From a virus, in the IMG/VR virus record IMGVR_UViG_3300003375_000003, positions 1 to 45,514 of that record: a DNA stretch of 45,514 nucleotides, one strand, 5' to 3'. The position numbers were made by a program, and so were the translations under genes. Every line of letters starts with the position of its first letter. Positions within the stretch are counted from its first letter, which is position 1. Below the pieces are notes generated by a model, which was not told the DNA's origin, did not search any database, and saw nothing but the letters and a program-made list of their open reading frames with translations. This document shows positions 4,551-43,060 of this stretch, one piece after another.

Positions 4551-5366
4551 ATGGAGAATATGAAAACAAAAGAGCAATATCAGATTGACAGGGAAGTTAT
4601 AGAAGCAAACAGGGAATATAAACCCATGCTCATTAACGATCACTTCCAAAATTACAAGTCATACAATATCCCAAAGGCGCAACTGATAATTGCGGATATA
4701 CCCTGTAACATTGGTAAAAACGCTTACGGCTCTAACCCGTCATGGTATATTGACGGCGACAATAAAAATGGAGAAAGCGAAAACGCTAACGCTGCCTTTT
4801 TTGATACCGACAGCGATTTTAGGATAACTGAATTTTTACACTTCTGTTCTACGCTATTGATAAAAGAACCAAAAGAGACGGGTAAAGCCCCATGCATGAT
4901 TGTATTCTGTGAGTTTGAGCAACAATTTGAACTTATACAAAAAGCCCCTAAATACGGTCTGAACGGATATATAAATCTTGTTTTCAGAAAGAATTTCTCA
5001 GCACAAGTTTTAAAGGCAAATATGCGCGTGGTTGGGAACTGTGAATATGCCCTAATTCTTTATCGGGATAAGTTGCCAAAGTTCAACAATGAGGGTAAGA
5101 TGGTTTTTAATTGCCTTGACTGGGTAAAAGATAATACAACGCCGAAGATCCACCCCACACAAAAGCCCGTTAAGCTTTTAGAAAAGCTGATAAGGATATT
5201 TACAGACAGGGGCGATGTGGTTATAGACCCTTGCGCCGGTTCAGGTTCGACCCTATTAGCCGCTTCTCAATGCGAACGCAGATCATACGGTTTTGAGATC
5301 AAAAAGGACTTTGTAAAAGAAGCAAAGGAAAAAGTATTAGGTACGTTTCAAAAAAACTTATTCTAA
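4551..5366 (+). CDS. beta-class N6A/N4C-type DNA methyltransferase (N6_N4_Mtase-like) with a non-canonical motif IV
   Basis: C-terminal HPTQKPVKLLEKLIRIFTDRGDVVIDPCAGSGSTLLAA is the classic PF01555-type AdoMet motif I region. The N-terminal motif IV position reads IIADIPCNIG (DIPC instead of D/S/N-PP-Y/F/W). Confidence 0.8.
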   Translation: MENMKTKEQYQIDREVIEANREYKPMLINDHFQNYKSYNIPKAQLIIADIPCNIGKNAYGSNPSWYIDGDNKNGESENANAAFFDTDSDFRITEFLHFCSTLLIKEPKETGKAPCMIVFCEFEQQFELIQKAPKYGLNGYINLVFRKNFSAQVLKANMRVVGNCEYALILYRDKLPKFNNEGKMVFNCLDWVKDNTTPKIHPTQKPVKLLEKLIRIFTDRGDVVIDPCAGSGSTLLAASQCERRSYGFEIKKDFVKEAKEKVLGTFQKNLF

Positions 5367-5397
5367 TCCCATCACCTGAGTAACGAGTTAAAAGAAA

Positions 5398-5640
5398 TTG
5401 GAAAAACTTATGGCACACGAATGTCCGATATGTTATATGAATTGTCATTGCGGAGGTGATATAGATGATATGTGCCTAGACGGTACAGACGAGCAATTGC
5501 ATTGCACCCATTGCAATGAAGATGAGGAAGATGAGGAAGATGGGGAAGACTGGGAATGTCCCAAATGTGGTGAATGGAATGGGGATCACGACGATAAGTG
5601 TCCGCTGAGAAATCCGTTTTATGATAGCAATATAGATTAA
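5398..5640 (+). CDS. small, highly acidic Cys-rich (zinc-ribbon-like) protein
   Basis: 80 aa with CPIC, CTHC and CPKC pairs plus further Cys/His residues, and an EDEEDEEDGED run. Confidence 0.6.
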   Translation: MEKLMAHECPICYMNCHCGGDIDDMCLDGTDEQLHCTHCNEDEEDEEDGEDWECPKCGEWNGDHDDKCPLRNPFYDSNID

Positions 5641-5678
5641 ATAAACAAAAGCTACCAAAGGATTGCCGTCCCGGTAGC

Positions 5679-5924
5679 TTGGTGAAAAACAAAATTATGA
5701 AACTACCAAATCATAAAATATATAGACCCGTTGAAATTCCCCTGATTTGTGACGGAATGGGGATATACGAGCTTGCTTGTTGGTCCGACTATGCTTACAG
5801 GCATAAACTGTCTGATTTAGCCATAGAAGTTGACAGGTGCGTTAAGAAACTGCCTTTAATAGATCAGGCGCAACTTAATAAACTGACATACTACAAACCG
5901 TATGTTTTGGAAATGGTAGGGTAA
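5679..5924 (+). CDS. hypothetical protein (81 aa)
   Basis: Clean ORF in the operon orientation. Its stop lies 2 nt before the left target duplication of cassette 1. Confidence 0.55.
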   Translation: MVKNKIMKLPNHKIYRPVEIPLICDGMGIYELACWSDYAYRHKLSDLAIEVDRCVKKLPLIDQAQLNKLTYYKPYVLEMVG

Positions 5925-5934
5925 TTTAAAAACA

Positions 5935-6491
5935 GGTAACTATATACTTATTTAACATAAAATGTAAAACAATATGGAACTACAATTTGATTACATAAAA
6001 TGCCCCTTAAACCGTTATACGTTTAAGGTCAAGAATATTAGGGAATGGGTAGAACGTAATTGCGAAGGCACAACACTTAATCTATTTGCTGGAATAACAA
6101 AGTTAAATATAGATGAAATACGAAACGATTTAGACACTATTGATGCTATTGCTGATTACAGGATGGATGCACTTGATTTTGTAAAAAAATGGAAGGGAAA
6201 GAAGTTTGACACTATACTACTTGACCCGCCATATGCGTATCGTAAAAGCATGGAAATGTATAAAGGAATAAGATGCTCGCCTTTCAGGCAACTGAAAGAT
6301 GAGTGTCCGAAGATATTATCTCCAAACGGTAAAATAATCACTTTCGGCTACCATTCAAATATATTTGGTTCAGGTCGTGGATTTATTGTTGAGAAAATTG
6401 CACTATTCAGTCATGGTGGGGCTATTCACGATACAATAGCATCTGTTGAACGTAAAATTAACAATCAAGGGTAAATAAGTATATAGTAATT
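5935..6491. mobile_element. TIR-bounded mobile insertion cassette 1 (557 bp; cargo is a small DPPY methyltransferase; no transposase)
   Basis: Left end is GGTAACTATATACTTATTTAACAT (5935-5958). The reverse complement of the right end is AATTACTATATACTTATTTACCCT (6468-6491). The direct repeat TAAAAACA abuts both ends (5927-5934 and 6492-6499). Confidence 0.7.
5974..6474 (+). CDS. small AdoMet-dependent methyltransferase with a DPPY motif (putative DNA N6A/N4C MTase)
   Basis: 166 aa. Motif I-like LNLFAGIT, an acidic NDLD, and motif IV LLDPPYAY. Its stop codon lies inside the right TIR of cassette 1. Confidence 0.65.
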   Translation: MELQFDYIKCPLNRYTFKVKNIREWVERNCEGTTLNLFAGITKLNIDEIRNDLDTIDAIADYRMDALDFVKKWKGKKFDTILLDPPYAYRKSMEMYKGIRCSPFRQLKDECPKILSPNGKIITFGYHSNIFGSGRGFIVEKIALFSHGGAIHDTIASVERKINNQG

Positions 6492-6608
6492 TAAAAACAA
6501 TACCGTGCTACTTGGCGGCGGCACGGCATAAACATCAATCGTTTGTTACATAGTTTCAAATTATGTGCCAAACGCAATAAAGAAAACGTTAAAGCACAAT
6601 TTTTAATT

Positions 6609-7397
6609 ATGGCATTAAGAGATCAGCCCTACTTACCCCTATATGTTCAGGATTTTATGACGGATGAAAAGTTGGCAGAATGTAGCGCAACAGCTAACGG
6701 GGTTTACATACGTATTATGTGTCTTTTACATAAATCAGAGGAGTACGGCACTATTTTGCTTAAGCAAAAGGATAAGCAAAACTCAAGCAAAAACATCAAT
6801 TTCGCACACAAACTTGCAAAATTTATGCCATATCCTTACTCCGATGTTTTGTCGGGTTTGGAGGAATTATTGAACGAAAATGTTTTGATGATTGAGGGCG
6901 ATAAGCTAATACAGAAGCGGATGTTAAAGGATTCGTGCATTAGCGATAGTAGGTCAAAAGCAGGTAAAAATGGGTACGCCTCAAAAACTTTTGCTCAAGC
7001 AAAACCTCAAGCAAACAGTCAAGCAAATCCTGAATATGAAAATGAAAGTGTAAGTTATAATGAGGGTATAGGTAATAATATAATTCCCGACTTTCAAAAT
7101 TTTGTCCCTCCTTCTGTTTTAGATGCCGTAATTGTCAGACCTCCGAACGCACCTGAATTTCAAAAAGTGTTAGAATTTTTTGTAGGTCATGGGAAAACCG
7201 AGGCAGACGCAACAACTTTCTTTAATCACTTTGAAGGATTAGGATGGAGAAAAGGAATATCCCCAATATTCGCATGGAGATCAATTGCAAACAACTGGAT
7301 CGCTAACATTCCCAATTTCATTAAAAACGAAAACGACAAAAAAGATATTCCAATTTCCCCTGCTGAACAAAAACTACTAAACAAATACAAAAGATAA
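6609..7397 (+). CDS. DUF1376-type replication initiation/primosome protein
   Basis: From ATG 6609: MALRDQPYLPLYVQDFMTDEKLAECSATANGVYIRIMCLLH, which matches the DUF1376 N-terminal signature. The track start 6543 is a TTG. The current stop TAA (7395-7397) lies inside the left TIR of cassette 2. Confidence 0.65.
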   Translation: MALRDQPYLPLYVQDFMTDEKLAECSATANGVYIRIMCLLHKSEEYGTILLKQKDKQNSSKNINFAHKLAKFMPYPYSDVLSGLEELLNENVLMIEGDKLIQKRMLKDSCISDSRSKAGKNGYASKTFAQAKPQANSQANPEYENESVSYNEGIGNNIIPDFQNFVPPSVLDAVIVRPPNAPEFQKVLEFFVGHGKTEADATTFFNHFEGLGWRKGISPIFAWRSIANNWIANIPNFIKNENDKKDIPISPAEQKLLNKYKR

Positions 7398-8387
7398 CTA
7401 TATACTTATTCACCCTAAAAAGAAAAACGAGATGAAAGACATAGATTTTAATAATGCTTTAAAAGCACTTGTAAAATGAAAAAGCGACTACTTATATCTT
7501 TTATCGGGGGTAGAACATCGGAATTTATGCTATGGTGGTTAATGAACAAATGGGAGGACAGACACCTTTACGATATAATAGTTGTATTTGCTAATACGGG
7601 TAAAGAGGTAGAAGGAACGTTGTTTTTTGTTGACGAGGTGGCGCAGGAATTTAACATACCTGTTGTGTGGGTGGAGGGCTACCCAAGCGATAAGGGTAAA
7701 GGTTGGGCAGTCAATCATAAAATTGTCACCTATGAAACAGCCAGTAGAAACGGAGAGCCGTTCGAAGCAATGATAAAAAAGTTAGGCATCCCTTGTAGTG
7801 AAGCTCCATTTTGCTCAGACCAACTAAAAAGAAGTGCTATTGAAAGCTATTTACGTTCGATAGGTTGGGAAAATGGTAGTTATGATGTAGCTATTGGTAT
7901 TAGGATTGACGAACCTAAAAGATACAAAACCAAACGAGGGGTAAGGAAAGTAAAGAAAAACAGGATTTTACCATTGGTTGATATTTTCCCTGTTGATAAG
8001 AAATGGATTTTAACATGGTGGAAACAACAAACATTCGACTTAGACATACACGAGGATGATGGGAACTGTGATAACTGTTGGAAAAAGAGCGACAAGGTTT
8101 TATATCGAAACGCCATAAGAAAACCTAAATCTTTCAACTGGTGGCAAAGAATGACAGATACATACCAATGTATAAGGGTTGAAGGGGTAGTGAATTTCTT
8201 TAGAAAAAACAGGTCACCCAAAGACATTATCTGTCAGGCACAAAAGACAACACAGGAGGAAATAAAGCAACAATCATTATTTGACGAAGTATATGCATGT
8301 GGTGAAAGCTGCGAACCATTTTAAAAGATGGGTTTTACCCACCCTTAGCAGTATTGCAATAACAGGGTAAATAAGTATATAGTTACC
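7393..8387. mobile_element. TIR-bounded mobile insertion cassette 2 (995 bp; cargo is a PAPS-reductase-like gene; no transposase)
   Basis: Left end is GATAACTATATACTTATTCACCCT (7393-7416). The reverse complement of the right end is GGTAACTATATACTTATTTACCCT (8364-8387), so 22 of 24 positions are identical. A perfect 8-bp direct repeat ATACAAAA abuts both ends (7385-7392 and 8388-8395). Confidence 0.8.
7476..8324 (+). CDS. PAPS-reductase/PP-loop ATP-pyrophosphatase family protein (DndC-like fold)
   Basis: N-terminal PP-loop variant LISFIGGRTSE (compare SFSGGKDS), FCSDQLKRSAIE and GIRIDEPKR (compare GxRxdES..R). C-terminal Cys clusters DGNCDNCWKK and ACGESCEPF. Confidence 0.75.
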   Translation: MKKRLLISFIGGRTSEFMLWWLMNKWEDRHLYDIIVVFANTGKEVEGTLFFVDEVAQEFNIPVVWVEGYPSDKGKGWAVNHKIVTYETASRNGEPFEAMIKKLGIPCSEAPFCSDQLKRSAIESYLRSIGWENGSYDVAIGIRIDEPKRYKTKRGVRKVKKNRILPLVDIFPVDKKWILTWWKQQTFDLDIHEDDGNCDNCWKKSDKVLYRNAIRKPKSFNWWQRMTDTYQCIRVEGVVNFFRKNRSPKDIICQAQKTTQEEIKQQSLFDEVYACGESCEPF

Positions 8388-8403
8388 ATACAAAAAATAA
8401 ATA

Positions 8404-9903
8404 ATGGCACTAAATATAAAAAAAGATTTCAATAATAACAGATCGCGCAAGCCAGACTTAACAACTTTGGTTTACGGGAAAATACCACCTCAGGCGCCTG
8501 AATTTGAGGAGGCTATTCTTGGTTGTTGCTTACATGAAAACGGACGGCACACATTTGAAATTGTGTTGGGTATAATTCAACAGCCTGATATTTTCTATGT
8601 AGATGCTCACCAAAAGATATTTGCAGCCCTATTGCGCATGTATGAAGCTCATTTGCCTATTGATTTGCTTCTTACCACGGAGGAATTGAGAAAATCTAAT
8701 GAATTAGAATTGGTTGGCGGTGGTTATTACCTGACAAACCTTATGCGTAAGGTTATCACAGATGAAAATGTAGAATTTCATTGCAGGGTAATAGTTGAGA
8801 AATTTATTCAGCGTGAATTAATACGCATTTCAGGTAATTGCATTGGTGACGCTTACGAGGATAATACAGACCCTTTTGATTTGGGAGAAAAAATAAGCGA
8901 CGAACTATTTAAAGTTTTATCCGGTAACATCAAAAAAGAACCTAAAAACATATCCTTAAGTGTAAAGGAATTATCAGAAAAACTTGAGGAACTTAAAAAA
9001 TCAAAAAGCGATTTAACGGGTGTGCCGTCAGGATTTTCTGAACTGGACGCAATAACGGGAGGATGGCAAAAATCAGACCTTACTATACTTGCCGCCCGTC
9101 CTTCTGTTGGTAAAACGGCATTCGCAATAGCTTTATCGCTTAATGCAGCATTGGCCGGTAAGCCAAGCGTAATTTTTGAGTTGGAGATGAATACGGGGCA
9201 GGTAATTATACGTATGGTATCATCTGTTGGAGAAGTTGAAATGCACCAATTAAGTCACCCAAAAAATATGACGGATGATGAATGGAGTAGGTATTACGCC
9301 GCCGCCGATAAAGTTGGAAAATTGAAAATATTTATTGATGATGAAGGAGGATTAAACATTTTTGAACTACGGGCAAAAGCAAGGAGATTAAAGCAAAAAC
9401 ACGATATAGAATTAATAATTATTGACTATCTGCAAATAATGTCAGGAATTGGAGGCGAGGGAAATAGGGAGCAGGAAATTAGTAAGATCAGCAGGGATTT
9501 AAAGAAATTGGCTAAAGACTTAGATGTTCCGATTATCGCATTATCTCAGCTTAACCGGAGCATGGAAAATACTAATGGAGAGTCAACGCGAGATCCTAAG
9601 TTATCAGATTTGCGGGAATCGGGAGCTATTGAACAAGATGCAGACAATGTAATTTTCATACACGATCCATCTGCCAAGATGATTGCCGCCAATAACATGT
9701 TTATGGGAAAGAAAATCATAAATATAGCTAAGGGTAGAAATATCGGGGTTCATGTGATACCCCTTGAGTTCAATAAAGATATTCAGAGATGGCGAGATGT
9801 TGACCAACCGAGTAATCAATTCCCGACAGAAAAACCGCCCGACAACCCCAAAGCAGGAATAAAAGGCGACTACAACAACTTCAACCGAAAAGACTGGGAA
9901 TAA
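8404..9903 (+). CDS. dnaB: DnaB-family replicative helicase
   Basis: GVPSGFSELDAITGGWQKSDLTILAARPSVGKTAFA (Walker A), IIDYLQIM, ALSQLNRS and LRESGAIEQDAD are canonical DnaB motifs. 499 aa. Confidence 0.95.
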   Translation: MALNIKKDFNNNRSRKPDLTTLVYGKIPPQAPEFEEAILGCCLHENGRHTFEIVLGIIQQPDIFYVDAHQKIFAALLRMYEAHLPIDLLLTTEELRKSNELELVGGGYYLTNLMRKVITDENVEFHCRVIVEKFIQRELIRISGNCIGDAYEDNTDPFDLGEKISDELFKVLSGNIKKEPKNISLSVKELSEKLEELKKSKSDLTGVPSGFSELDAITGGWQKSDLTILAARPSVGKTAFAIALSLNAALAGKPSVIFELEMNTGQVIIRMVSSVGEVEMHQLSHPKNMTDDEWSRYYAAADKVGKLKIFIDDEGGLNIFELRAKARRLKQKHDIELIIIDYLQIMSGIGGEGNREQEISKISRDLKKLAKDLDVPIIALSQLNRSMENTNGESTRDPKLSDLRESGAIEQDADNVIFIHDPSAKMIAANNMFMGKKIINIAKGRNIGVHVIPLEFNKDIQRWRDVDQPSNQFPTEKPPDNPKAGIKGDYNNFNRKDWE

Positions 9904-9935
9904 CCCCACATTTTTAACCAAAAAAAGAAAGAAAG

Positions 9936-10301
9936 ATGAAAACATTTGAACAGCTAATCAAAGAACATGGGATTTGGGCTGATGCCACTTTCCCGAAAGG
10001 AACTGCACAAGGCGCATTGATTCACGGTATGCGTGAGGCGCACGAAGTTATTTTAGATTTTGAGGAAATGGCTTCTAAGGAAAGTAAAGCGGTTGAACTT
10101 TCTGATTTCTTAGGATGCATATTTGATGCAGGCAGAAGATTTGGGGTAGATACAAAAACAGTTGCCCGAATGCTTGATTACTTATGCGATACGAGCGTTA
10201 CTCTTATCGACGTGCGAAATGCATTTGATTTAAAGTTACAAATCAACAAGGGGCGCACATGGAAAGACAATGGCGACGGCTCATATTCACACGTAAAATA
10301 A
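9936..10301 (+). CDS. MazG-like/DUF550-like nucleotide pyrophosphohydrolase (putative)
   Basis: WADATFP...ALIHGMREAHEV...ELSDFLGCIFDAGRRFG...KLQINKGRTW...SHVK resembles the all-alpha NTP-PPase E..E / E..D pattern and the DUF550 C-terminus. Confidence 0.5.
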   Translation: MKTFEQLIKEHGIWADATFPKGTAQGALIHGMREAHEVILDFEEMASKESKAVELSDFLGCIFDAGRRFGVDTKTVARMLDYLCDTSVTLIDVRNAFDLKLQINKGRTWKDNGDGSYSHVK

Positions 10302-10333
10302 CCCCACCAATTTTTAACTTTTAAAACGATATT

Positions 10334-10516
10334 ATGAAAAACAATGAAGGATTGCAAGACAACAATTCTCCGATAGTTCAGCAATCAGTAACAAGAGTTG
10401 AAGTAATCGACCATACCAAAAAAGATAATTGCAGATGTTATGTAAAATACGATGCAAAAGTGGTGTCACTAAGCTACCAAGATGACGGAAGGACATTGAA
10501 AATATTTATCTCCTAA
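10334..10516 (+). CDS. hypothetical protein (60 aa)
   Basis: ORF in the operon orientation. No motif recognised. Confidence 0.45.
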   Translation: MKNNEGLQDNNSPIVQQSVTRVEVIDHTKKDNCRCYVKYDAKVVSLSYQDDGRTLKIFIS

Positions 10517-14535: not shown

Positions 14536-15111
14536 TTAAGGAATAAAATCGGGAGCATTTACACCCCATTGAAATAAATATGCCTCGCATAGCCTGCGTT
14601 TTTTCAGCCCTTCCACTTCAACCAATTGTCCATTAACATGCGCTTTATCCCATTTCAGAAAGTCAGCGGTAATGACATCGAAATCGAGGGGTTTGGAATT
14701 AACAGATATTCTCAAAGATGAACTGTCCCAAGCACCTTGACCGACATTATAAATGAAGCAACAAAGAGCATCAAATTGCGCCTGAGTAAGGTTATCGGCT
14801 TTAGTTGCATTCAGATGGTCGATAAAATGCATTAGGGCGTTAACAAGGCATGCTTGCGCTTCTTCTTTGGTACACGTTTCACCTTCATATACTCGGTCTT
14901 GATTAGGATAATACGTAGTTCCGTAACCGATTGTCCATATTCCGGCAACATCTTTGTAGGCCGTTAATCTCAGACCTTCAAAATGCTCTAACAGGTCAAA
15001 TAATAATTGTGATGGTATCATTGAAATGGTTTGTAACAGATGAAGTAAATACCAAAAGCCAAAGAGCCTAAAATCAATATGACCAAACCCGTAAATAACA
15101 GGTCTAGCCAT
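14536..15111 (-). CDS. GH24 (T4/lambda R-type) lysozyme endolysin
   Basis: LLEHFEGLRLTAYKDVAGIWTIGYGTT carries the E-x8-D-x5-T catalytic triad spacing, with QFDALCCFIYNVG downstream. An alternative start at 15021 (MIPSQLL) would remove a 30-aa hydrophobic N-terminal extension. Confidence 0.9.
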   Translation of the reverse strand: MARPVIYGFGHIDFRLFGFWYLLHLLQTISMIPSQLLFDLLEHFEGLRLTAYKDVAGIWTIGYGTTYYPNQDRVYEGETCTKEEAQACLVNALMHFIDHLNATKADNLTQAQFDALCCFIYNVGQGAWDSSSLRISVNSKPLDFDVITADFLKWDKAHVNGQLVEVEGLKKRRLCEAYLFQWGVNAPDFIP

Positions 15112-35490: not shown

Positions 35491-35787
35491 TTAAGCTGTT
35501 ACTTTGCAGCCTTCGATATTATTCGTATGCTTGTCACCCTTAGTTACGTAGTTCTGATAAATGTGTTTAATCCTTACATGGTCGAAGTTTTCACTTAGTG
35601 GCACGTATGTTTGATAAGCGTCGGTAATGATACGTGAGTTTTCCTCAACGTTTGCTACCATAATCGGCAACAATGTTTCAGCCTTAGTATTTGGTACTAC
35701 AAACGTCCTGATCAGGATTGGTTTCATGATACACAAATATAAGCATTTTAAAGTAAAAAGCAGGTGTAAGAATACACCCGCCCCCAT
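35491..35787 (-). pseudogene. IS1595-family (ISXO2-like DDE) transposase fragment
   Basis: FVVPNTKAETLLPIMVANVEENSRIITDAYQTYVPLSENFDHVRIKHIYQNYVTKGDKHTNNIEG matches the central and C-terminal IS1595 DDE pattern (VVPN.K..TL.PI....V...S.I.TDE...Y..L....H..VNH....YV.G..HTN.IEGFW). The N-terminal zinc ribbon, first Asp region and C-terminal end are missing. Confidence 0.8.
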
Positions 35788-37452: not shown

Positions 37453-39270
37453 TTAATTCTGTTGTGCTGTTTTCATATCTGCGGCCTGTTGCGCTAGTTC
37501 CTGCTGCTCCGTCTTAACCGCATCCGTCTTATCCTTGCAGAATTGTTGAAACAATGCCAATAGTGCATCTTTCATCATAAACTGTTTTTGCAGGTCGTTA
37601 AGCGTTCGCATCCATTCCCCGAAATATATATTAGCCACTTTATCCTCAACGCTTATATCTGTTGCTGCGTTAACAATAACATCTGTTTTATGCGGGAACG
37701 GCTGCAATTCATAGAACTTTATCGCTACGGCAAGTTTATCGGGGTTTGACTTGTATGTAGCCATCAGGAAACGCTTAAATTGATTATCTAGCTCGACATC
37801 AGGCGTACCGTTCTTTAGCATATCATGGTACACCTCTAAAATATCCTCAGGCAATTCAAGTATGTAATTACGCGATAATCTTACACTTGTTTGGTTTGTC
37901 TTCCACATATCAGGAAACCAAAATTTACCTATGAAGTTGGATATGTTTTTTATACAATTCTCCGCCCAATCAGCGGTCATATTCAGACGGGCATACTCAG
38001 GCTGCAAGTTAGTAAGCGTCTTTGTTGCTGTTTCGTCCATATCACCCTTCCCGTTGCTCTGTACACGCACATTAGGCTTAGTACCCCAATAGGTTGCTAT
38101 TATCAAATCTTCCAATGAAATAAGCCCGTCATTCATCATTGTCAACCCTTCAATATCAGGGGTGATATACATAAAAATGTCGGAAGCCTTAAACCTCGGA
38201 ATGTCTTTGAGCATTTCAAGCGGGAAACGCGCTACATCTGCGGGTGTTGTACGCACTTTATAGCCTGAGCCAATACTTTGTCCCGGCAATGTACAATCCG
38301 GGCATGCTTGACCACGATATAAGCCGGTACTATCCCCGTTCGCAGTCTTACAGGTTGTGCATGATATTAGGGGTTCAACCGCTTTTGGGAATCCGTGTAG
38401 CTTCTTATGCAAGTCACGCACCGACCTGTCATATGCGAAACACTCTGCAAGTTCTATTACGAATTGAAGCGGTGAGCCAAACGCCTTAGGATCGTCAAAC
38501 TGGAATAAATCAGAAACAATAAATGCGGGTACTCTTCCAAAGTTGTGATAGATGGGGTTTTTCTGCCTCATCAGCACAATAGTAAGCGTATCGTTATCTC
38601 TCTTGTAAATAGTGTCGGAAACATCATCTACAAAGCGATAATAACCCTTTATGTTATCTCCCGCATAGTTGCCTGTTGAGTTAACAACCTGTTCGATAAT
38701 ACCATAGTCATGCAATTGCTCGGTAGATACATTGAAACACACGTACTCCAACATTCTGCCATTTGGCAGGTAGTCAAATATTTCGTCTGAGCTTTTGTAG
38801 GTCGGGTAGCATTTTGGAGTAGGAAAATTCACGCCGTCAAAAGACAACATTTCCTGAGCCTCCATGAAAATAATACTCATTGGGTCGGATCGGAATGCCT
38901 GCAATGCATAAGTATGTACCCAATGCTGCAACGACATGCCATTGATAACATCATCGGTAAGCGCACGCATTGTGTCCTCTTGTGCTTTAGGAAGCCCATA
39001 GAAAGTACTCCCTCCCGTTGTGGTAAATACTTGATCTTCTTTATGCAGCAAACGCTTAAATAGATCACGGTTGGATATTGCGCCTGACTTGCGCGAAGTG
39101 AAACACGCATCATCCTCTACGTATTTATCGCGCTGTAAATTGTCTTTATAACCAACGGAATGAGTATGGCGGCTATAAAGTTTACGCATTTCCTGAGCCT
39201 TTTTTACTAAGTCCTTTTGAGGATTAGTAAAAATTATATTCTTTATCTGCTCATACGAATAAACGCCCAT
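37453..39270 (-). CDS. portal protein (putative)
   Basis: 605 aa, immediately downstream of terL. Size and position are typical. No explicit motif claimed. Confidence 0.7.
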   Translation of the reverse strand: MGVYSYEQIKNIIFTNPQKDLVKKAQEMRKLYSRHTHSVGYKDNLQRDKYVEDDACFTSRKSGAISNRDLFKRLLHKEDQVFTTTGGSTFYGLPKAQEDTMRALTDDVINGMSLQHWVHTYALQAFRSDPMSIIFMEAQEMLSFDGVNFPTPKCYPTYKSSDEIFDYLPNGRMLEYVCFNVSTEQLHDYGIIEQVVNSTGNYAGDNIKGYYRFVDDVSDTIYKRDNDTLTIVLMRQKNPIYHNFGRVPAFIVSDLFQFDDPKAFGSPLQFVIELAECFAYDRSVRDLHKKLHGFPKAVEPLISCTTCKTANGDSTGLYRGQACPDCTLPGQSIGSGYKVRTTPADVARFPLEMLKDIPRFKASDIFMYITPDIEGLTMMNDGLISLEDLIIATYWGTKPNVRVQSNGKGDMDETATKTLTNLQPEYARLNMTADWAENCIKNISNFIGKFWFPDMWKTNQTSVRLSRNYILELPEDILEVYHDMLKNGTPDVELDNQFKRFLMATYKSNPDKLAVAIKFYELQPFPHKTDVIVNAATDISVEDKVANIYFGEWMRTLNDLQKQFMMKDALLALFQQFCKDKTDAVKTEQQELAQQAADMKTAQQN

Positions 39271-39362: not shown

Positions 39363-40829
39363 TTATACCATCCAAACATTACTTTTGCGGGTCTTATACG
39401 CCGTAAATTCCTTTTCGAGTATCTTACATATGAAATACCTCTTAGCGTCCGAGAAGTGCCCAAACGGCTCGTATGTCTGCCCTGTGACTTTATCTTTCAC
39501 CTTTGTTTTCAACATAGCCCCGTCTTTATCCTCCTTCACGCTGATATAATCATCAATGGATACAGGGCAATTATCGCCAATAGTTATGCTGTACCCATCA
39601 TATTCATTTTCGTAAATGTCGTTCACAAACTCAGCAGAGCGTGCAACTTCTGGGTGTGATTTACCTATACGCCTGAATACTGAATAACCCGCCTCTTGGA
39701 GTGTGGAAATGAATTTATCGTACCATGAAAGGTTATTTTCATCAATAGTATTTTGGGAATTGCCGGACGGGTCGCCGTACACATACAGCACGTCTTTGTA
39801 GTCGATACTATCCAGCCATTTAATTACCCTCTTAGCGGCCTTAATTGCATTATTATCGGGATTGCGACATGGGAACTCGTTTATCTGCCTGATATTCTTA
39901 TTCACATATTGCCACGCTCCCACCGTTACATATGGGTTTGCGTTCTGGTCACATGAAAGATGTATTGTAGTGGGTGCAACCTCTATTTTACGCACATGCT
40001 TAACCTCGTCAAATTGCTTCCAAAACTCGCCACCTGTACGGATAATACCACGTTCACCATTGGCATAGATACGGTATAGATTAGGCTTTTTAAGCCGCAA
40101 AACTTCAAAGTTTTCAAGAGCATGAGTATCTATATTCCCGCCACCCCATGGACGACCTACAACCCAATAGTTATCACGGTAAGTAACTTTTATCCAAATA
40201 GTGTCTTTGGCTTTATTTGTGCGCTTAAATGAATATTCGGGGTCTAAACCTGAGAACTCGCGCCCTTCAATCGACAGCGGTAAATCTGTCCATTCCTGAG
40301 TATCAATATCATTCTCATATTGCCACAGCTTTGAACTTACTGGATTCCAGTCGCAAATAAATTTCTGATTAGGTAGTCCTCGTAAACGCAACTTAGCCTG
40401 ATCCCAAACATATTCCTCACATTGATTCCATTCATTGAAATAAATGAAATTGAATTTAGCAATACCCTTTATGTTTTCGTCATCATCAAGACCACGAAAA
40501 CGTATATCAGACTTGCCGTCCTTGCCTTTAAATAGGTTCTGTTGCGGTATGTAGTAATCTAACTCCATGCCGTCTTTAGCCATCTTGAAAGTGCTATAAA
40601 CACTATCCAAAATGTCCACCAATTGAGCGCGAAATACCATTGTTGAATATTCATGCTGAAAGCCGGCTATTAAAAGGGCCTGGCAGATGGAATAGGTCTT
40701 TGCGGCACTACTGCCACCCTCAACCTTAATGAATCGTATAGATGGGTCTAAAAGGGCTTGTAGGACGTGCCAGAATAGCGGATTGAAGCCTTTAGGGGAA
40801 AAGTTATACTGACGGGTGAAATTTGCCAC
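39363..40829 (-). CDS. terL: terminase large subunit
   Basis: 488 aa. Walker-A-like VEGGSSAAKTYS near the N-terminus. A 1-nt overlap links it to the upstream Terminase_2 small-subunit gene. Canonical position. Confidence 0.85.
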   Translation of the reverse strand: MANFTRQYNFSPKGFNPLFWHVLQALLDPSIRFIKVEGGSSAAKTYSICQALLIAGFQHEYSTMVFRAQLVDILDSVYSTFKMAKDGMELDYYIPQQNLFKGKDGKSDIRFRGLDDDENIKGIAKFNFIYFNEWNQCEEYVWDQAKLRLRGLPNQKFICDWNPVSSKLWQYENDIDTQEWTDLPLSIEGREFSGLDPEYSFKRTNKAKDTIWIKVTYRDNYWVVGRPWGGGNIDTHALENFEVLRLKKPNLYRIYANGERGIIRTGGEFWKQFDEVKHVRKIEVAPTTIHLSCDQNANPYVTVGAWQYVNKNIRQINEFPCRNPDNNAIKAAKRVIKWLDSIDYKDVLYVYGDPSGNSQNTIDENNLSWYDKFISTLQEAGYSVFRRIGKSHPEVARSAEFVNDIYENEYDGYSITIGDNCPVSIDDYISVKEDKDGAMLKTKVKDKVTGQTYEPFGHFSDAKRYFICKILEKEFTAYKTRKSNVWMV

Positions 40830-41863: not shown

Positions 41864-43060
41864 TTATAAAGTGTTAGATACTTTCTTTATTTTATCATGC
41901 TCCCTTTTTTCGCTGTCTATATCGTAGTGGCGTTTCAACATCTCCACACTTTCAGCGTTTTGGATCGCGGCTGCATCTATCCCGATTAGTGCGGCTGTTT
42001 CTGTGGTGTTAAGGTGCTTTAAACTATACATACCTACTTTGATATTCAGCTTCTCTTTTATCCGCTTCCACCGTTGTTTAATGGCATTTGTAGTAATCGG
42101 AGTGTTGCCGGTAAGTAAATCATCAGACCATACATAATCCCCCTTTTTAGCATTGCCAATTGCCTCGCGCCACATGCCTACGGCAATATCCTTAATAGGG
42201 CGTTCTTTATAGCTGTATTCGCGTCCTTTCATTACCAGGTAGGTAACAACCTGTCTTTGTAAATCTACGTCTTTAACTTTGACCCGCAACATCTCTGTGA
42301 TCCTTGAGCCTGAGTGAAAGAATATATTTATAAATAATAGGAATCTTGTGCTTGTTTTCTGCAAATGCTCAATAAGTTTCACGCGCTCCGGCTTGGTAAG
42401 CAATACCTTTTTTGCTCTCGGTGCGGTCTTTTGCCGTTCAAGCGAAATGGGATAATTTGCTTGTACGACTTCAACTATGATCAGCTTTTTATAAAATTTA
42501 CGCAATACCTTTTTATGAGTATTAAATTTATTCCCCGACCATGTACCATCTTTTTTGTATGCAGCCCGTTCACATATCAAATACAAGTGCCTTAGCGTAA
42601 CGTCCCAAATATTCATTTTATCGAACCGAAGATATTGAGCGGCATTTGTAATTTCTCTCAGGCTCCAATCTGTTTCCGCCGTCATGGTCGTGTCGGCCTC
42701 TTTCAATTTGCCTTTTACATATTTCAAAGCCTCAATAAAAGGTGTCCATTTGTTTATTTCCTCATTTTCGGGTATCAATACCGGCTTTTGCGTTCGCTCG
42801 GTTATTGGGTTATACCCTATTACCTCAAGTTCGTAATCCAGTTGTTTAAGAGCCTCTTTCATTGCCTCCCGCCGATCATCAATAGTGTCGAACGTATTGA
42901 ACCGACTTATCATTACCTGCTTATTAGCGCGCAAATTATCATCATAAAACCTATACTTTATATACCACGTTTGACGTAGCAGGGAATTACCCCCCGTTTT
43001 CCATTTATCGGGCTTTACAAGTATGTTGCCGCGCCTGCAATTATTCGGTAATGCTTTCAT
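41864..43060 (-). CDS. int: tyrosine recombinase (phage integrase)
   Basis: 398 aa. FFHSGSRITEML (catalytic Arg region), YSLKHLNTTE (His box) and MLKRHY (C-terminal Tyr). Adjacent to a tRNA 3' fragment. Confidence 0.9.
   Translation of the reverse strand: MKALPNNCRRGNILVKPDKWKTGGNSLLRQTWYIKYRFYDDNLRANKQVMISRFNTFDTIDDRREAMKEALKQLDYELEVIGYNPITERTQKPVLIPENEEINKWTPFIEALKYVKGKLKEADTTMTAETDWSLREITNAAQYLRFDKMNIWDVTLRHLYLICERAAYKKDGTWSGNKFNTHKKVLRKFYKKLIIVEVVQANYPISLERQKTAPRAKKVLLTKPERVKLIEHLQKTSTRFLLFINIFFHSGSRITEMLRVKVKDVDLQRQVVTYLVMKGREYSYKERPIKDIAVGMWREAIGNAKKGDYVWSDDLLTGNTPITTNAIKQRWKRIKEKLNIKVGMYSLKHLNTTETAALIGIDAAAIQNAESVEMLKRHYDIDSEKREHDKIKKVSNTL

Follow-up and report, generated by a model that had tools for sequence, protein, structure and literature searches.

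Two short gene cassettes bounded by the same type of terminal inverted repeat were found in the early/replication module of a phage genome, IMG/VR record IMGVR_UViG_3300003375_000003. The whole stretch of 45,514 nucleotides was analyzed and is referred to below as the window. Both cassettes are oriented like the adjoining genes. The initial annotation of this DNA, made from the sequence alone, had reported one cassette, referred to here as cassette 2; that element stands, but a second one with the same ends, cassette 1 at 5935-6491, had been missed.

Cassette 2 is 995 bp long, its bounds (7393-8387) having been obtained by direct reading and with a repeat finder. It consists of the following parts, including the flanking copies of the target-site duplication (TSD) and one small open reading frame (ORF).

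7385-7392, no strand: left TSD copy, ATACAAAA, within the last codons of the DUF1376 gene
7393-7416, plus strand: left terminal inverted repeat, GATAACTATATACTTATTCACCCT
7417-7431, plus strand: A-rich leader, AAAAAGAAAAACGAG, kept beside the left repeat across the family
7432-7479, plus strand: relic ORF of 15 codons, MKDIDFNNALKALVK, tblastn match to the 3' end of the transposon's ~80-aa gene
7476-8324, plus strand: cargo, 282-aa PAPS-reductase-like (PP-loop) protein, PHROG 424, E 1.8e-46
8320-8363, plus strand: conserved subterminal region, ...CCCACCCTTAGCAGTATTGCAATAAC, adjoining the right repeat
8364-8387, minus strand: right terminal inverted repeat, GGTAACTATATACTTATTTACCCT, 1 mismatch to consensus
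8388-8395, no strand: right TSD copy, ATACAAAA, with the dnaB start codon 8 nt further

The left repeat (7393-7416) and the reverse complement of the right repeat (8364-8387) were identical at 22 of 24 positions, and ATACAAAA forms a perfect 8-bp duplication abutting both tips. This octamer alone is not rare, with 9 copies in the window against 5.4 expected; its significance lies in its position at both tips rather than in its rarity, the chance of finding it exactly there being ~2e-5 at the base composition of the window. The DUF1376-type ORF (6543-7397) now ends in AAA AGA TAA, of which the GA of AGA and the TAA are supplied by the element. Removal of the element and one ATACAAAA copy gave AAC AAA TAC AAA AAA TAA ATA ATG, which places the dnaB start (ORF 8404-9903) 3 nt past the DUF1376 stop; the predicted empty junction is ACTACTAAACAAATACAAAAAATAAATAATGG. 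The element length, the repeat match, the perfect duplication and this rebuilt site with its 3-nt spacing had all been given in the initial annotation, and were confirmed in coordinates and sequence. Its description of the content was correct in that no transposase lies inside, but incomplete, as the relic ORF 7432-7479 is present beside the single gene named there.

The direct repeat was also seen to extend imperfectly past 8 bp (7385-7400, ATACAAAAGATAACTA, against 8388-8403, ATACAAAAAATAAATA; 14/16), so that the target just beyond the insertion point resembles the repeat tip. This likeness may reflect chance in AT-rich DNA or a target preference.

Cassette 1 shows the same organization, with one ORF between the repeats.

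5927-5934, no strand: left TSD copy, TAAAAACA, identical to 6492-6499 and directly outside the repeat
5935-5958, plus strand: left terminal inverted repeat, GGTAACTATATACTTATTTAACAT, 3 consensus mismatches, all in the inner part
5974-6474, plus strand: cargo, 166-aa DNA methyltransferase with a DPPY motif, PHROG 11619 'DNA methyltransferase', E 1.2e-38
6468-6491, minus strand: right terminal inverted repeat, AATTACTATATACTTATTTACCCT, with a degenerate tip
6492-6499, no strand: right TSD copy, TAAAAACA, perfect 8-bp match to the left copy

The same ends thus surround a different cargo ~900 bp from cassette 2. The insertion interrupts the spacer that separates a small ORF (5679-5924) from the DUF1376 gene, and the predicted empty junction is GGTAGGGTAATTTAAAAACAATACCGTGCTAC. 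The methyltransferase ORF begins 39 nt from one tip and ends, within the right repeat, 17 nt from the other; the protein was 30% identical to the cargo of cassette L081. The tip of the right repeat reads AATT, with 3 of its first 4 bases differing from GGTAAC, and this end is therefore probably no longer cleavable. A composite transposon spanning 5935-8387 was considered and rejected, since the outer flanks TAAAAACA and ATACAAAA differ. Homing-endonuclease mobile genes have an endonuclease gene within or beside the inserted segment; ORF and profile scans detected none in either cassette.

Four copies of the 22-mer core of the terminal repeat (≤3 mismatches) were present in the window, forming two convergent pairs, and no match was obtained in 100 dinucleotide-preserving shuffles of the window. 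The repeat was then used as a probe on public sequence collections: viral contigs were scanned with the exact 16-mer TAACTATATACTTATT, and genome and metagenome contigs with the degenerate pattern GGTAACTATATAYYTATTNANMC. The scans needed exact pattern matches, and the metagenome matches are a lower bound. The search pattern fixed most consensus positions at one end per pair, and the partner end was found independently, with ≤6 mismatches.

Many single matches of the 16-mer in viral contigs were due to chance. Loci with at least two repeat copies, in contrast, always held convergent pairs (plus, then minus) bounding a segment, and not the arrangement in one orientation upstream of many genes that the initial annotation had considered as a sign of a promoter or operator. 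After deduplication, at least 67 distinct repeat-bounded elements of 92-6430 bp were obtained. A perfect flanking repeat of exactly 8 bp at the tips was observed in 38 of the 67 elements listed, and none at lengths of 4-7 or 9-12 bp; six shifted registers tested across the same elements gave a single match. The chance expectation for 8-bp duplications was ~0.05 even with 90% A+T flanks, and the duplicated targets were 90% A/T. Chance is excluded as an explanation by the shuffles and the duplication statistics. The 24-bp end consensus was GGTAACTATATA[CT][TC]TATT[CT]A[CA]CC[T].

The family also has members of the size of miniature inverted-repeat transposable elements (MITEs) with perfect 8-bp duplications, namely L120 304-558 (255 bp), L144 6638-6929 (292 bp) and L215 70-355 (286 bp). 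Two 92-bp repeat-to-repeat units without duplications were observed in L190 (3871-3962 and 4823-4914).

Elements of ~1.6 kb or more encode a transposase of 305-356 aa (L001, L004, L018, L117, L121, L123, L130, L131, L246 and others); its gene lies at 673-1644 in L004 and at 3081-4013 in L246. The transposases of L001 and L004 matched Pfam DDE_Tnp_IS1595 (PF12762; E 3e-41 to 4e-42) and Zn_ribbon_IS1595 (PF12760), and that of L004 also matched NCBIfam NF033547, "IS1595 family transposase", with 212 bits against a cut-off of 75. The remaining ones were assigned by BLAST, with 48-91% identity to the L001/L004 transposases. A DDE transposase with a zinc ribbon, an 8-bp TSD and short imperfect inverted repeats, the features of IS1595 membership, are thus all found in the family. 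The full-length insertion sequence (IS) with these ends, for which the initial annotation had proposed a search, therefore exists, and it encodes an IS1595-family transposase. The closest annotated plasmid IS1595 transposases were ≤47% identical to those of the family. A collection of deposited phages contained only two unannotated transposase fragments (38% identity) and no close homologue. Judged by eye, the ends GGTAACTAT and the L001 motifs (..ADETF.., ..TDEW.., ..LEGFWSLLKR.., ..DEFVFRYNTR) presumably resemble those of the ISNwi1 subgroup, which in ISfinder has ends of the ggnnatTAT type and a DDEK + ER4 signature; this subgroup placement is provisional.

Most full-length elements examined have a conserved gene of 75-90 aa directly behind the transposase, the two either overlapping or abutting.

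L001, 3951-4190: small gene
L004, 1577-1816: small gene
L118, L130, L131, L247 and others: small gene

Pfam, NCBIfam and PHROG scans of this ~80-aa gene gave no match; it may be an accessory or regulator of transposition.

Autonomous copies with these ends were found in genomes of Chitinophagales, Flavobacteriales, Saprospirales, Kordia and Sphingobacterium. Among the copies in viral contigs and the window, 11 of 14 lacked the transposase, whereas 9 of 12 in genome contigs had it (Fisher p = 0.016, a small sample). Full-length copies occur in viral contigs as well (L001, L004 and L018). No intact transposase was found in the window, neither between the repeats nor elsewhere, and the window cassettes are accordingly derivatives of the IS1595 family rather than autonomous members.

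About 50 different cargo genes, including that of cassette 1, were found between repeats of this family, as the initial annotation had anticipated in proposing to look for the same repeats around other cargo. The cargo survey comprised 54 non-redundant proteins of at least 100 aa from the elements listed. DNA methyltransferases accounted for ~20 of these and span at least six Pfam classes (N6_N4, C5, D12, MT-A70, Dam, EcoRI-like, RsmD-like small enzymes), the window methyltransferase 5974-6474 belonging to the RsmD-like small enzymes. PAPS-reductase-like proteins accounted for ~7 (window, L142, L239, L038, L004, L246 and L194). Cargo in Kordia genomes included RhuM, RadC and Bro-N.

Several single cargo genes were observed besides these. 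A radical SAM gene is carried by L223 (870-2047 and 8506-9683), where the same element occurs twice, identically, on one contig, and a nucleoside deoxyribosyltransferase by L189 (1751-2468); both fit a theme of nucleotide or DNA modification. The viral-contig element L061 3813-5221 (duplication TTCACAGG) holds a PD-(D/E)XK endonuclease beside an N6/N4 methyltransferase, which may form a complete restriction-modification (R-M) pair. In L170 1189-2444 and L254 277-1549 the sole gene is of TnpB type (397-400 aa; Pfam OrfB_IS605, Cas12f1-like TNB); the duplication of the L170 element is TTAATGAA, and an RNA-guided nuclease gene is here carried in the cassette of another transposon.

The PAPS-reductase-like cargo of cassette 2 (7476-8324) matched Pfam PAPS_reduct only at E 0.0024, below threshold. 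It has 5348 homologues, the closest being 76% identical, and a PDB sequence search returned no relative. For the flanking DUF1376 gene, the nearest homologue among 5.8 billion proteins was only 55% identical, and this gap of 76% against 55% is consistent with horizontal movement of the cargo. A role in DNA modification would be suggested by the slot common with methyltransferases and by a distant kinship to DndC, the latter having been seen for the PAPS-reductase-like cargo of L004.

The layout of the cassettes was markedly uniform. An A-rich leader of the AAAAAGTAAAAA type follows the left repeat in most cassettes listed, and in many the cargo begins 38-40 nt from the left tip. Of 34 single-gene cassettes, 15 have the cargo stop within the 24-bp right repeat, usually as the TAA of AGGGTAAAT, and the sequence adjoining the right repeat across cassettes is ...GCAATATTGCAATAAC. 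Examples of this compact layout are the window cassette 5935-6491, L114, L115, L169, L170, L199 and L210.

Between cassette 2 and L142, identity was 91% in the left 86 nt, which contain the relic ORF, and 90% in the right 69 nt. The two elements have unrelated flanks, and BLASTP could not align their cargo proteins, although both proteins match PHROG 424. The right 70 nt of L052, whose cargo is a D12-type methyltransferase, were 96% identical to those of cassette 2. These shared ends suggest that the transposase-less form has spread as such. Ends that agree around differing cargo further imply either that cargo was swapped in a fixed frame or that the ends were kept uniform by selection for transposase recognition.

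Remnants of the autonomous backbone were detected in several cassettes. Seven full-length elements and cassette L038 have small-gene 3' ends with which the relic ORF 7432-7479 aligned, and the same relic was found in L142; the stop of the relic overlaps the cargo start (ATGA), as does that of the small gene in L004. L056 keeps the first 29 transposase codons and an intact small gene, truncated transposases of 123 and 197 aa are present in L143 and L229, respectively, and longer small-gene tails are kept in L038 and L052. Such relics indicate that the cassettes are internal-deletion derivatives of a transporter IS.

Empty sites, also proposed for checking in the initial annotation, were recovered at nucleotide level for a sibling element, but for the window only at the level of gene order. 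The L241 cassette 203-936 (C5-cytosine methyltransferase) is flanked by duplicated TAAATAAA, and in L169, a ~90% identical contig, the same flanks are joined through a single TAGATAAA at about 8060-8080 (minus strand). A tandem partial copy of the right repeat was observed in L241. As L169 has another cassette (6953-7549, MT-A70-like) ~500 bp away from this empty site, the region may be an insertion hot spot. The closest relatives of the window phage (L102-L104 and L108; 52-55% protein identity) have DUF1376 and dnaB genes that overlap by a few bases, without repeats; the intervening gene of the window is therefore an insertion at gene-order level. The nearest DnaB in IMG/VR reached 45% identity at most, and megablast of 5000-10500 against 50,697 deposited phage records gave no match. 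The rebuilt empty sites of L018 and L061 gave 0 matches each in exact-match scans of viral contigs.

Taking together what was directly observed, namely the ends, the duplications, the family, the identity of the transposase, the cargo spectrum and the empty site of the sibling element, we consider it highly probable that 7393-8387 and 5935-6491 are non-autonomous cargo cassettes derived from an IS1595-family transporter IS that is common in Bacteroidota and their phages. The autonomous element consists of the left 24-bp repeat, the A-rich leader, optional cargo, the zinc-ribbon DDE transposase, the ~80-aa gene, cargo and the right repeat, and its transposase would insert it into AT-rich DNA with duplication of 8 bp of target. 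The window cassettes have lost the transposase, cassette 2 retaining the last 15 codons of the ~80-aa gene. As the window holds no intact transposase, either the cassettes were inserted by an enzyme from another source or their own transposase disappeared once they were in place. In the former case the enzyme could have come from an autonomous copy in the lysogenised host or from a co-resident phage, and the simplest model would be transposition into a prophage with transposase from a host copy. Mobilisation in trans is suggested by the chassis common to the window and L142 and by the duplications of the MITE-sized members. The cargo would be expressed by read-through transcription, assisted in cassette 2 by translational coupling to the relic ORF. 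Phage DNA could be protected from host restriction by the methyltransferase and perhaps also by the PAPS-reductase-like enzyme.

Several observations weigh against this interpretation. One tip deviates in each window cassette: besides the degenerate right tip of cassette 1, position 2 of the left repeat of cassette 2 is A, G being present there in 128 of the 134 family ends listed. With one tip of each mutated, both cassettes may now be fixed in place. No nucleotide-level empty site for the window's own insertions was obtained in the collections searched, which hold no close relative of the window phage, so that such a site could not be found there. A perfect duplication was absent in 29 of the 67 elements listed, 3 of them being off by one base, which indicates that recombination also reshuffles the elements. 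All-against-all blastn of the elements revealed no identical transposase-less cassette at two sites with different duplications, and recovered only the same locus on reverse-complemented contigs. Around P0123, P0125, P0129 and P0134, which encode PAPS-reductase-like proteins 69-74% identical to the cargo, neither family repeats nor clear inverted repeats were found; this gene is usually an ordinary phage gene that is captured only sometimes. Finally, transposition and expression of the cassettes, and any activity of their cargo, are predictions from sequence comparison.

Three other explanations were weighed against the same data. It appears rather unlikely that the elements simply decayed in place, that is, that full-length elements arrived and lost their transposase by internal deletion within the phage, perhaps under a packaging size limit, and never moved in trans. 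Such decay would agree with the surviving backbone relics (7432-7479, the transposase N-terminus of L056, the truncated transposases of L143 and L229), with the full-length copies in viral contigs (L001, L004, L018) and with the lack of an identical transposase-less cassette at two differently duplicated sites. However, the same deletion product (leader, ATG, MKDIDFN..ALKALVK, ATGA) is present in the window and in L142 between unrelated flanks, and two independent identical deletions are hard to credit. The very small elements L120 (255 bp) and L215/L144 (286-292 bp) have perfect duplications, and many cassettes conform to one minimal plan, in which the cargo starts 38-40 nt from one tip and ends within the other repeat; both points count against decay in place.

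We regard as improbable an explanation in which the ends serve as short homology arms, phage recombinases swap cassettes or cargo between co-infecting genomes, and transposition plays a minor part now. In T4-type phages, repeated promoter/stem-loop units have been proposed as recombination arms. Exchange of this kind would suit the 29 of 67 listed elements without a perfect duplication, the end chassis 90-96% identical among cassette 2, L142 and L052 despite differing cargo, the L177 and L037 pair, in which one flank is common and the other different, and the YqaJ-type exonuclease encoded by the window phage. Homologous exchange, however, makes no 8-bp duplications, and these were seen in 38 of the 67 elements listed, in both window cassettes and in L241/L169; the repeats are also inverted rather than direct, and a matching DDE transposase exists. 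Scarcely any credence can be given to a regulatory origin, in which the 24-mer is a phage promoter, operator or terminator and ATACAAAA an A-rich coincidence. The repeat tip does contain TATAGT, an outward-facing -10-like hexamer at 3 of the 4 ends, and ATACAAAA is common in the window, but promoter-like matches numbered 11 against 11.1 expected in shuffled sequence. A promoter or terminator function of the repeats was rejected on this ground and because convergent pairs bound segments, each pair with its own 8-bp duplication; moreover, full-length copies encode a transposase, and the motif is common to unrelated phages and bacterial genomes.

The derivation from an IS1595 transporter IS agrees with known systems in most respects. 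An 8-bp target duplication is a hallmark of the IS1595 family, and Siguier, Gagnevin and Chandler reportedly described IS1595 transporter IS in 2009, with members carrying passenger genes. Passenger-carrying "transporter IS" (tIS) are also attributed to this family in the TnCentral preprint (10.1101/2021.05.26.445724). The full-length relatives share with IS1595 tIS the DDE transposase with a zinc ribbon, short inverted repeats, the 8-bp duplication and internal passenger genes. In contrast to the known tIS, the window copies lack the transposase, the elements occur in phage genomes, their cargo is mostly DNA methyltransferases and PAPS-reductase-like proteins, and a conserved ~80-aa gene lies behind that of the transposase.

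MIC231 of the Bacillus cereus group is a mobile insertion cassette (MIC) that is moved in trans by the IS231 transposase. The term is in current use (PMC6199540, PMC6542083, PMC4337579), and the resemblance to such a cassette that the initial annotation had pointed out was found to apply to both window cassettes, which have the ends of an autonomous IS, no transposase, unrelated gene(s) and an IS-typical duplication. Their parent is, however, an IS1595 element and not IS4/IS231 or Tn3, the replicon is a phage, mobilisation in trans is put forward from the sequence, and the end chassis also provides a leader and often a stop codon.

Furuta, Abe and Kobayashi (2010; PMC2853133) described transposon-like methyltransferase or R-M units that lie between imperfect inverted repeats, are flanked by an 8-bp duplication and have a cleanly empty counterpart in a related genome, and one Neisseria unit also has a gene with a transposase motif. 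L061, with its nuclease and methyltransferase, is similar in content. These units are single cases in bacterial chromosomes, each repeat pair apparently being unit-specific. Here, by contrast, dozens of different cargo genes are enclosed by a single repeat family, for the most part in phage contigs.

The mycobacteriophage elements MPME1 and MPME2 are ~440 bp long, have repeats of 11 bp and carry no cargo, only a single small ORF of their own; they are not known to be linked to IS1595. Like the window cassettes, they are small, have terminal inverted repeats and reside in phages, where they are polymorphic among related genomes (PMC3029335, PMC5356059); they differ in lacking cargo. As with MITEs, the family includes non-autonomous members dependent on a transposase made elsewhere and members of MITE size, but the window cassettes carry intact ORFs of 166 and 282 aa with strong family matches that are apparently functional. 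T4-type regulatory cassettes have direct repeats, a promoter and a terminator and no target duplication, unlike the inverted repeats and 8-bp duplications found here.

The mechanism is therefore a known one, that of the IS1595 transporter IS and its mobile-insertion-cassette derivatives, and the findings extend known biology without a new principle. In the literature searched, which included few subscription journals, no description was found of IS1595-type cassettes with modification genes in phages, of one repeat family with dozens of alternative, mostly DNA-modification cargo genes, or of the conserved end chassis (leader, mini-ORF, stop codon) and the Bacteroidota-type phage setting.

Among the flexible genes of phage populations, orphan DNA methyltransferases are the most frequent (PMC7468147). 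Their movement between phages has rarely been shown, and the IS1595 element with its cassettes provides one concrete, testable vehicle. Transposition into prophages is a plausible route by which Bacteroidota phages gain such genes, and the cargo slot of the methyltransferases is also occupied by PAPS-reductase-like proteins, a phage family that is poorly understood. Searches keyed on the 24-bp end can be used to look for new phage genes of DNA modification and anti-restriction, and a genetic tool for Bacteroidota and their phages might be based on the compact ends.

Tentatively, and with more doubt than belief, the elements could be read as a standardised 'plug-and-play' cassette system for phage genomes, going beyond decayed transposons. 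The chassis would then provide transposase sites, a translation leader, a coupling mini-ORF and often a stop codon, with ~86 nt on the left (repeat, A-rich leader, optional ATGA mini-ORF) and ~69 nt on the right (subterminal palindrome and repeat). Any DNA- or nucleotide-modification gene, and even TnpB, would fit between them, and host-resident autonomous copies would shuttle the cassettes between Bacteroidota prophages. If this holds, the system would serve phage anti-restriction genes as integron cassettes serve resistance genes, and would explain why orphan methyltransferases are the most variable genes of phage populations (PMC7468147).

One further trace of the IS1595 family was detected in the window, outside the cassettes.

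35491-35787, minus strand: 98-aa ORF, DDE fragment of an IS1595-family transposase, Pfam DDE_Tnp_IS1595, E 5.2e-12, profile positions 53-120 of 153

The statement in the initial annotation that a transposase is lacking thus holds for an intact one in the window, but not for this fragment. It was ~40% identical to the family transposases and is too short for activity; no repeats were found nearby. It has head genes on either side, with a hairpin and a Bacteroidetes-type TATATTTG box upstream, and, to judge by this profile match, is a third relic of IS1595 activity in the phage, older than the two cassettes.

The window phage is a temperate phage of Bacteroidota type, encoding an integrase (41864-43060), a large terminase (39363-40829), a portal protein (37453-39270) and a lysozyme (14536-15111). 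Upstream of the cassettes, a further DNA methyltransferase (4551-5366, plus strand; Pfam N6_N4_Mtase, E 1e-24) is present without flanking repeats, so that the phage has two methyltransferases and a PAPS-reductase-like gene within 4 kb. The contig ends (1-38 and 45477-45514) share a 38-nt direct overlap, which indicates that the genome is probably complete and circular or circularly permuted.

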